Shown here one piece after another: positions 2-1,652 of a stretch of 64,000 nt of DNA (position 1 is the stretch's first letter; every line of letters begins with the position of its first letter). The notes beneath the pieces are model-generated. The model had not been told where the DNA came from, did no database searches, and was given only the letters and a program-made list of their open reading frames with translations. The stretch lies in assembly GCF_051903065.1 (NCBI RefSeq), contig NZ_CP178438.1. One strand, 5' to 3'. This DNA comes from Escherichia coli (GTDB lineage: Bacteria; Pseudomonadota; Gammaproteobacteria; Enterobacterales; Enterobacteriaceae). The position numbers and the translations under genes are program-made.

Positions 2-1111
2 TTGGAAGAGGCGCTATTACACAGCCAGAAACTGAAAGCGGTCGGGCAACTGACGGGCGGGCTGGCCCATGATTTTAATAATCTGCTGGCGGTGATTATT
101 GGCAGCCTGGAGCTGGTGAATCCGGACTCGCCAGACGCGCCGCGAATACAGCGGGCGCTGCAAGCTGCCGAACGTGGGGCGCTACTGACACAACGACTGC
201 TGGCGTTTTCCCGCAAGCAGTCCTTACATCCGCAAGCCGTTGAACTGAAAACATTGCTGGAAGAGTTAAGCGAATTAATGCGCCACTCCTTACCGGCAAC
301 GCTGGCGCTGGAGATTGAAGCGCAGTCTCCGGCGTGGCCCGCGTGGATTGACGTCAGCCAACTGGAAAATGCCATCATCAACCTGGTGATGAACGCCCGC
401 GATGCGATGGAAGGGCAGACGGGAATTATCAAAATTCGTACCTGGAATCAGCGCGTTACTCGCAGCAGTGGGCAGCGTCAGGACATGGTGGCACTGGAGG
501 TCATCGATCATGGCAGCGGTATGTCGCAGGCGGTGAAAAGCCAGGTATTTGAGCCATTCTTTACCACCAAACAGACGGGCAGCGGCAGCGGGCTGGGTTT
601 GTCGATGGTCTATGGTTTTGTGCGCCAGTCCGGTGGGCGCGTTGAAATTGAAAGCGCGCCGGGGCTGGGGACAACGGTCAGATTACAGCTTCCCCGCGCG
701 CTGACGGCGGCGAAAAACCTATCGCCAGCGGCAGTAGAACAGGCTTCTGTCAGCGGCGATAAACTGGTGTTAGTGCTGGAAGATGAAGCCGCGGTGCGCC
801 AGACCATCTGCGAACAGTTGCACCTGCTGGGCTATTTGACGCTGGAAGCAAGCAGCGGCGAACAGGCGCTGGATCTGCTGGCGGCATCAGCAGAAATCGA
901 TATTTTTATCAGCGATTTAATGCTCCCCGGCGGCATGAGCGGCGCAGAAGTGGTCAATGCGGCCCGCAAACTTTACCCGCACCTGACGCTGCTACTCATC
1001 AGCGGTCAGGATTTACGCCCCAGCCATAACCCCGCGCTGCCAGACGTGGCGCTGTTGCGCAAACCCTTTACCCGTGCGCAGTTGGCGCAGGCGCTGGGGC
1101 AAGAGAATTGA
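2..1111 (+). CDS. Hybrid sensor histidine kinase / response-regulator receiver protein, C-terminal portion (ORF runs to the window edge, so the N-terminal sensor part is probably missing)
   Basis: Translation has an H-box (LAHDFNNLL), N-box (NLVMNARDAM), G-boxes (DHGSGM, GSGSGLGLS) and a C-terminal receiver domain (LVLEDE ... ISDLMLPG ... LRKPF). Domain call is from motifs only. Confidence 0.8.
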   Translation: MEEALLHSQKLKAVGQLTGGLAHDFNNLLAVIIGSLELVNPDSPDAPRIQRALQAAERGALLTQRLLAFSRKQSLHPQAVELKTLLEELSELMRHSLPATLALEIEAQSPAWPAWIDVSQLENAIINLVMNARDAMEGQTGIIKIRTWNQRVTRSSGQRQDMVALEVIDHGSGMSQAVKSQVFEPFFTTKQTGSGSGLGLSMVYGFVRQSGGRVEIESAPGLGTTVRLQLPRALTAAKNLSPAAVEQASVSGDKLVLVLEDEAAVRQTICEQLHLLGYLTLEASSGEQALDLLAASAEIDIFISDLMLPGGMSGAEVVNAARKLYPHLTLLLISGQDLRPSHNPALPDVALLRKPFTRAQLAQALGQEN

Positions 1112-1179
1112 GAATCCTCCTCTACTCGTAACAGGCACCTTTGCCTACCTTGTATTAACTTTGTTGCGAGGCCGAGTTT

Positions 1180-1509
1180 ATGAAACGCCACTCCACGCTT
1201 TTTCTTTTCACCCTGCTCACGCTGACCACCGTACCGGCCCAGGCCGATATTATCGACGACACCATTGGCAATATTCAGCAGGCGATTAACGACGCTTATA
1301 ACCCTGACCGTGGGCGAGACTATGAAGATTCGCGCGACGATGGCTGGCAGCGTGAAGTGAGCGACGATCGGCGCAGACAATATGACGACCGCCGCCGCCA
1401 GTTTGAAGATCGCCGCAGGCAGCTGGACGATCGCCAACGTCAGCTTGATCAGGAGCGTCGGCAACTGGAGGATGAAGAGCGGAGAATGGAAGATGAGTAT
1501 GGGCGGTGA
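1180..1509 (+). CDS. yjdP: YjdP-like small secreted protein with signal peptide and Asp/Arg-rich tandem repeats
   Basis: 109 aa; N-terminal signal peptide ending in AQA; repeated D-R-R-R-Q motifs; position between the kinase gene and phnP matches yjdP. Confidence 0.75.
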   Translation: MKRHSTLFLFTLLTLTTVPAQADIIDDTIGNIQQAINDAYNPDRGRDYEDSRDDGWQREVSDDRRRQYDDRRRQFEDRRRQLDDRQRQLDQERRQLEDEERRMEDEYGR

Positions 1510-1514
1510 GGTAG

Positions 1515-1650
1515 GCTCGGGTGCTGGCATCGCCCCTCACCCTAACCCTCTCCCCAAAGGGGCGAGGGGACCGATGGTGCACGGGGTGATTTTCTCCCTC
1601 TCCCTGTGGGAGAGGGCCGGGATGAGGGCATCAGCGCGCACATTCTCCCC
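1515..1650. repeat. GC-rich tandem hairpin element (boxC-like) in the yjdP-phnP intergenic region
   Basis: Two adjacent imperfect palindromes (ccctctcccc..ggggcgaggg and ccctctccc..gggagaggg); a second copy of the 25-bp core is at 28975-29005. Confidence 0.5.
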
Positions 1651-1652
1651 CA

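Follow-up and report, generated by a model that had tools for sequence, protein, structure and literature searches.

The small gene at positions 1180 to 1509 of a 64,000-nucleotide stretch of Escherichia coli DNA (the whole stretch is here called the window) raises two questions: what kind of protein is built from repeated Asp and Arg residues, and what controls its production? An earlier note, made from the sequence alone, described it as YjdP, a secreted, highly charged and probably disordered protein of no assigned function, encoded between a signalling gene and the Pho-regulated phn operon. Here we describe the heptad structure of the repeats and a candidate promoter upstream of the gene. 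The account that we favour is of an Rcs-controlled, Sec-exported periplasmic charged-helix protein, to which we give a probability of about 60%.

The ORF (1180-1509, plus strand) begins with ATG and has 109 codons and a stop, giving 109 aa. It is YjdP, with all the marks of membership in that family. It scores 149.1 bits against a cutoff of 90 with NCBIfam NF041443, "DDRRRQL repeat protein YjdP" (residues 1-103 on profile positions 1-101 of 101), a full-length match, and its homologues carry Pfam PF28054. Its mature sequence is that of K-12-like strains and it has the same position beside phnP. The earlier naming is thus borne out. Neither the gene nor its repeat is new, since the repeat forms part of the curated family name. 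A local Pfam-A search returned sub-threshold coiled-coil noise only (DUF7900, Arm-DNA-bind_5, DUF4140). The open-access literature assigns no function to yjdP (b4487), as the note had stated.

The gene is found in 5404 of 5426 complete E. coli genomes, and the other 22 are without a match. In the complete genome of E. coli FLI21 an IS1X2 insertion splits it (locus L012:574-1679). The split copy and the 22 genomes without a match indicate that at least some strains can do without yjdP. Among 1.84 billion protein representatives searched exhaustively with HMMER, only 51 matched, and these are representatives at 50% identity. All of the named members are Enterobacteriaceae (Escherichia, Shigella, Citrobacter, a Klebsiella MAG, Buttiauxella, Cronobacter and Entomohabitans), and across genera the ORF is conserved over its full extent, at identities as low as 41%. 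yjdP is a true gene that has been inherited vertically, and it belongs to the core genes of Escherichia, Citrobacter and a small number of related Enterobacteriaceae. When the 102-aa allele was compared with plasmids by tblastn, the matches listed were non-mobilizable records of 18 kb to several Mb, in which the repeat region was unaligned.

The case that the earlier note named against itself was that the repeat tract is an artefact, the by-product of another gene or of a frameshifted pseudogene. Two alternative ORFs, a 174-aa antisense frame at 1006-1530 and a +1 frame at 1382-1744, are indeed open across the GC-rich repeats. Read in the yjdP frame, however, the great majority of substitutions are silent: between the repeat regions here and in Citrobacter, 26 codons differ synonymously and 3 non-synonymously, which excludes a frameshifted other gene. 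The conservation from start to stop across genera and the curated HMM for the family also speak against an artefact, and the probability of this reading is negligible.

Table 1. Features of the yjdP region, with window coordinates
Feature	Position	Strand	Basis
Candidate RcsB-type box TGAGAATCCTCCTC	1109..1122	+	consensus match 7/8; same offset in 13 loci
Inferred -10 hexamer TACCTT (TAnnnT)	1146..1151	+	exactly 23 nt after the box in 13/13 loci
Shine-Dalgarno GAGG	1168..1171	+	8 nt 5' of the ATG; direct reading of the sequence
yjdP CDS	1180..1509	+	NF041443 match; yjdP annotation in a 100% identical genome
Signal peptide, residues 1-22 (MKRHSTLFLFTLLTLTTVPAQA)	1180..1245	+	rules; predicted SPase I cleavage after A22
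Predicted acidic amphipathic N-terminal helix, residues 23-40 (DIIDDTIGNIQQAINDAY)	1246..1299	+	hydrophobic moment, conservation, AlphaFold2
Predicted acidic flexible linker, residues 41-54 (NPDRGRDYEDSRDD)	1300..1341	+	AlphaFold2, family variation
Predicted long charged alpha-helix, residues 55-108	1342..1503	+	AlphaFold2, salt-bridge pattern, hydrophobic stripe, 21-nt units
Six heptads; partial seventh	1363-1488; 1489-1506	+	within the long-helix region
yjdP-phnP convergent spacer, G-rich dispersed repeats	1510..1652	.	inverted arms, folding, dispersed copies

The repeats have been read as D-R-R-R-Q and E-D-R-R-R-Q units. Asp/Arg repeats do dominate the mature part of the protein, but the unit has 7 residues, not 5 or 6. 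It is a strict heptad, D-D-R-R-R-Q-[Y/F/L/M], present in six copies and a partial one. The six copies are in register (DDRRRQY, DDRRRQF, EDRRRQL, DDRQRQL, DQERRQL and EDEERRM) and are followed by EDEYGR. In the DNA, Tandem Repeats Finder reports a 21-nt period with 3.5 copies and 75% matches. The repeat residues are under strong purifying selection.

The comparison of repeat number across strains that the note had proposed as a check shows length variants in whole heptads. Among the cluster representatives these variants are 95, 102, 109, 116 and 123 aa long. Among complete E. coli genomes almost all copies are of the 109-aa form, and a 102-aa allele occurs in about 18 records. A hypervariable contingency locus was considered for the heptad tract. 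It is rejected because likeness among the 21-nt units is only about 75% and because the 109-aa form so nearly prevails in E. coli.

Mature YjdP has 87 residues, a mass of 11 kDa and a pI of 4.6, and 55% of its residues are charged. AlphaFold2 (AF2) was run with a 22-sequence family alignment. It draws residues 55-108 as one 54-residue helix with a pLDDT of 88-97. Within this segment the i/i+3 and i/i+4 charge pairs are ordered (35 favourable, 4 unfavourable; z = 4.9), and none of 20000 composition-preserving shuffles reaches the score. Each heptad has one hydrophobic residue (Y68, F75, L82, L89, L96 and M103), and this stripe at every seventh residue is kept in 20 of the 20 family members examined, the most distant at 41% identity. 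The net charge per heptad runs +1, +1, +1, 0, 0, -2, -2 along the helix. Residues 41-54 (14 residues) are modelled without secondary structure (pLDDT about 50), and their length and sequence vary across the family. Residues 23-40 are well conserved across genera and have a hydrophobic moment of 0.52, which is attained by 0.3% of shuffles (p = 0.003). AF2 makes them helical with low confidence (about pLDDT 60). A sequence profile search of the PDB gave nothing below E = 0.03, and its matches were coiled-coil noise.

These predictions bear on the suggestion that the protein is disordered. In its fullest form this reading takes YjdP for a polyampholyte without stable structure, a hydrophilin- or LEA-like periplasmic solute or buffer. 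The high share of charged residues and the very few hydrophobic ones fit it, as do the low pLDDT of the linker and N-terminal part and the lack of matches among PDB folds. Asp, a poor helix former, is abundant, and long helices are what AlphaFold is inclined to predict for charged periodic sequences of any kind. Yet a polyampholyte defined by composition alone would tolerate shuffling and out-of-register indels. The heptad register and charge order of YjdP are not matched by shuffled sequences, its repeats are modelled at high pLDDT, its codon differences are mostly synonymous and its indels are solely whole heptads. The hydrophilin criterion is 6% Gly, and YjdP, with 4.6%, falls below it. We therefore consider a wholly disordered protein quite unlikely. 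The predicted helix, the salt-bridge order, the ratio of synonymous to non-synonymous substitutions and the whole-heptad length variants together argue for a structural helix in the repeats, similar to a charged single alpha-helix (CSAH) and with a single hydrophobic seam, rather than disorder. Of the earlier description the high charge stands, whereas the disorder is predicted only for the linker, residues 41-54.

A helix with one stripe may also be part of an oligomer. The Leu stripe, flanked by Arg and Gln, would then drive formation of a dimer or trimer, and in one variant the basic N-terminal half could pair antiparallel with the acidic C-terminal half to give an Lpp-like periplasmic rod. 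The heptad periodicity is perfect and each seventh residue is Y/F/L/M across the family, which agrees with such a coiled coil, as does the charge gradient. The length of the helix, about 8 nm, is close to that of the Lpp helix. A linked construct (mature protein, 30-residue Gly/Ser linker, mature protein) was also modelled with AF2. Its pTM was 0.46 against 0.36 for the monomer, in a model judged by its scores; both helices stayed at pLDDT 81-95 and the N-terminal helix fell to about 40. However, there is one hydrophobic position per heptad and the would-be second core site is Arg, and Foldseek found no PDB match, helical bundles included, for the linked-dimer model, nor any for the monomer model. 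A lipobox and a C-terminal Lys are also lacking for an Lpp-like rod. The oligomer is a possibility to be kept in mind, though less likely than not.

Comparison with known systems places this helix more closely. The CSAH or ER-K helices of the myosin X and caldesmon type share with YjdP a 7-residue charge periodicity, dense i/i+3 and i/i+4 pairs, a long isolated helix (by prediction in YjdP) and very low hydrophobicity. YjdP differs in that its acidic partner is mainly Asp and not Glu, and in being bacterial and periplasmic. Whereas a CSAH is defined by having no hydrophobic seam, YjdP has a conserved Y/F/L/M in every heptad. Nor does it have the a/d core of a canonical coiled coil, as its other core position is Arg. 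Lpp is likewise a small periplasmic all-helical heptad-repeat rod of about 8 nm, a description that fits YjdP by prediction. YjdP, in contrast, has no lipobox Cys, ends in Arg and not Lys, has one core position and shows no sequence similarity to Lpp. Spy and CpxP (LTXXQ) are small, helical proteins with a signal peptide, and the RNA-seq data that include yjdP (see below) show them, too, as induced by envelope stress. They differ in regulon, and YjdP has no LTXXQ Pfam match even at E = 1 and no hydrophobic cradle.

The N-terminus has the form of a canonical Sec/SPase I-type signal peptide on rule-based inspection, in agreement with the signal peptide noted before. It reads M-K-R-H, an uncharged 14-residue core (S5-V18), P19-A20-Q21-A22 and then D23. 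The positive residues of the n-region are K2 and R3, the Kyte-Doolittle maximum of the h-region is 2.6 (9-mer), and small residues stand at -3 and -1 (A20-Q21-A22|D23). In the family alignment A22 is invariant, and A20 and D23 are conserved at 90% or more. The sequence has no Cys, hence no lipobox, and no twin-arginine motif. Export by Sec and cleavage after A22 are likely on these rules, which were used in place of a trained predictor or proteomics. The mature protein would then begin with DIIDD. The signal-peptide region evolves fast: of its differences from K-12-like strains, 6 are non-synonymous and 2 synonymous.

In some other E. coli strains the h-region contains a perfect 9-nt microsatellite, (TTCACGCTG)n, translated as (TLF)n, which is far more variable than the heptad tract. 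Examples are L018:328-386, L019 and L020:336-450. It is present in about 5-6 of 60 rank-spread rows, and the corresponding segment of the window, 1206-1232, has imperfect copies only. Translated alleles are 118, 121 and 139 aa long, and match spans suggest forms of 112 and 115 aa too. For strain AREA_487, where n is about 12.6, the PGAP annotation uses an internal start in place of the ATG. A megablast search with the (TLF)n segment alone gave no match; its unique flanks are shorter than 28 nt and the repeat was probably masked. Long (TLF)n hydrophobic cores could alter the targeting or cleavage of YjdP.

The second question, that of control, was approached by aligning the DNA upstream of yjdP from 13 loci of about ten lineages. 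The flanks are unalignable except for one conserved island, (A/T)TTGAGAATCCTCCGCT. Its core is TGRGA-N4-TCY, placed 57-59 nt 5' of the ATG at each of the 13 loci. The island contains a candidate RcsB-type box, TGAGAATCCTCC, exactly 23 nt 5' of a TAnnnT hexamer in 13 of the 13 loci examined. The consensus for the RcsB homodimer, obtained by crystallography and EMSA, is TN(G/A)GAN4TC(T/C)NA (PMC7913699). The yjdP box matches it at 7 of the 8 specified positions; the last consensus A is C or G in every locus. The left half of the box, ATTGAGA, is that of the rprA box that was co-crystallised with RcsB. The rprA box lies at -49 to -36, within a 23-mer that spans -53 to -33 (PMC7913699). Because the distance from box to -10 hexamer is exactly 23 nt, as in rprA, the box would lie at about -49 to -36 in the yjdP promoter also. 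The transcription start is predicted at about 1158-1160.

Six regulator motifs were tested, and RcsB alone was consistently placed. None of the PhoB, CpxR, sigma-E, BaeR and PhoP motifs is conserved upstream of yjdP. The box-spacer-hexamer pattern has one match in the 64-kb window, at yjdP, with 0.23 expected. The promoter has no recognisable -35. A scan with the sigma-70 consensus found no promoter, as expected for one that depends on an activator and lacks a -35. Rfam gave chance-level matches only for positions 900-1900. In MG1655 the intergenic region of bdm and osmC reads TCGGAATATCCTGC, then 23 nt, then TAGTCT, by our own reading, presumably at osmC p1. The likeness to promoters of the rprA type, with osmC p1 and bdm among them, thus consists of a TNRGA-N4-TCY box that would be centred near -42.5 in place of the -35, together with the left half shared with rprA and induction under a strongly Rcs-activating condition. 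The difference is that the last consensus base is not A at yjdP, where the likeness is known from sequence.

The gene upstream of yjdP varies among loci (hybrid kinase, rpiB, nitroreductase, a protein with a metallo-beta-lactamase fold, or an unknown protein). Since the box and its 23-nt spacing are kept despite these different neighbours, the promoter is likely to be autonomous. The TGA stop of the upstream gene forms the first three bases of the box (window 1109-1111; L002:4917-4919; L015:2929-2931), that gene being the hybrid kinase here and in Citrobacter and rpiB in K-12-like strains. With the stop codon inside the box, the whole 68-nt intergenic gap would be promoter.

Published expression data are consistent with this assignment. 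An inhibitor of LolCDE, a stress on lipoprotein trafficking, induces yjdP 9.5- and 10.6-fold (J Bacteriol 2016 RNA-seq, PMC5105897). The table in which yjdP appears is dominated by Rcs targets such as osmB, bdm, wca genes, rcsA, ivy, mliC and ygdR, in an experiment that also induces Cpx, sigma-E and RpoS genes and did not include an rcsB mutant (PMC5105897). The conserved promoter suggests that yjdP is under Rcs control in response to envelope damage, and we infer direct activation by phosphorylated RcsB at about -42.5. The open-access literature holds no statement that yjdP is regulated by RcsB, and yjdP is absent from the supplements of the Rcs-related papers examined; prior knowledge elsewhere is possible.

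The box may instead serve another regulator, or yjdP may be expressed mainly by read-through from the hybrid kinase or rpiB, or through RpoS. The sites of NarL/FixJ-family regulators resemble one another, and a UvrY box presumably also fits the core of the yjdP box. Every locus has a mismatch at one consensus position, the upstream gene runs in the same direction as yjdP and its end lies within the box, many of the genes co-induced in the LolCDE study are RpoS-dependent, and a ChIP/RNA study lists yjdP among the genes changed by another regulator. Set against this are the box and its exact spacing to the -10, kept although the upstream gene differs, and the half-site identical to that bound by RcsB in the rprA crystal. 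Control by something other than RcsB is, on balance, unlikely, and we retain RcsB as the probable activator.

The pieces can be assembled as follows. A promoter of its own, without a -35, would drive yjdP when a phosphorylated RcsB homodimer occupies the box centred near -42.5, as at rprA. Rcs would sense damage to the outer membrane, the peptidoglycan or lipoprotein trafficking, and YjdP would be made. Sec would export the preprotein, with cleavage after A-Q-A22. Mature YjdP would then comprise a short acidic amphipathic helix, a flexible acidic linker and a rod of roughly 8 nm. The rod, a single 54-residue helix with six D-D-R-R-R-Q-L heptads, would be held by i/i+3 and i/i+4 salt bridges between Asp/Glu and Arg, and would carry a narrow Leu/Gln/Arg stripe and a charge gradient from basic to acidic. 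More speculatively, the rod may dock electrostatically or self-associate along its stripe, acting as a stress-induced periplasmic shield, holdase, decoy or spacer, and the N-terminal helix may be a specific binding module.

A bolder form of the proposal is that YjdP is an unrecognised Rcs effector and the first bacterial periplasmic CSAH-like rod (~8 nm), acting electrostatically and anchored to a partner by its N-terminal helix. We regard this as a long shot. If true, the protein could serve as a decoy, with cationic antimicrobial peptides or host proteins of the lysozyme type as its targets, or as a spacer or ruler that affects periplasmic width.

Beyond the existing annotation, the repeat becomes a conserved structural heptad in a predicted long charged helix, and the gene gains a candidate RcsB-type promoter. 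Both points, the helix and the link to Rcs, add modestly to what is known and can be tested. The conserved promoter and the published induction give an orphan core gene a testable place in the Rcs regulon. They direct the search for a phenotype to polymyxin and cationic peptides, lysozyme, beta-lactams or A22, and also to Lol or Bam defects and desiccation, rather than to phosphate limitation.

A link to phosphate was implied by the placement of yjdP beside the Pho-regulated phn operon, and it is not supported. yjdP converges on phnP in most loci, where the stop codons sometimes overlap, and because of this orientation it is not co-transcribed with phnP. It is kept where the phn genes are reduced or lost. 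Upstream of yjdP in 11 loci the best matches to a Pho box have 6-8 mismatches in 18 and scattered positions. The adjacency to phn is conserved synteny without co-transcription.

The location given before is right in that a signalling gene lies upstream and phn lies alongside, but the signalling gene is the hybrid histidine kinase of an OI167-type island, and in K-12-like strains the neighbour is rpiB. The 701 bases around yjdP are 100% identical to those of E. coli ECNB21-M121, in which the gene lies between a hybrid sensor kinase and phnP. This identity indicates that the window comes from an E. coli that carries an OI167-type island. Mature YjdP is identical in island-bearing and K-12-like backgrounds. 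Similarity to K-12-like strains is lost upstream of the gene and within signal-peptide codons 4-9. The differences are confined to roughly the first nine codons and to the promoter-proximal DNA, and both stretches resemble those of Citrobacter and E. albertii. We attribute the differences at the 5' end to the island, which abuts the gene.

The right-hand junction of the OI167-type island falls inside codons 4-9 of yjdP (window 1100-1210). The 5' end encodes MKRHSTLFLF here, as in Citrobacter and E. albertii, and MKRFPLFLLF in K-12-like strains. The adjacency of hybrid kinase and yjdP is found also in Citrobacter and Entomohabitans (L015:667-3330; L006:2085-4321), and in Entomohabitans the C-terminal 387 residues of the kinase show 74% identity. 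Recombination with yjdP as the anchor may have brought in the island.

On the other side, the spacer between yjdP and phnP has inverted arms at 1534-1554 and 1608-1628 that are 81% complementary, and it folds at -73 kcal/mol (z = -1.8). The median E. coli genome has copies of parts of it at 6 places. It is probably a structured or terminator region. An HPGQ site (G-quadruplex-hairpin element) is listed between yjdP and phnP (PMC5100583). In some other genera yjdP and phnP overlap and the spacer is absent. In Citrobacter a HigB-like toxin and HTH antitoxin pair is inserted between the two genes (L015:3486-4156).

The upstream side of yjdP appears to be an insertion hotspot across genera. In Cronobacter dublinensis an HSP90-like HATPase_c_3 protein and a 771-aa protein without a Pfam match are encoded upstream of yjdP (L003:1-3894). 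This two-gene cassette looks like an inserted accessory module, possibly one of defence.
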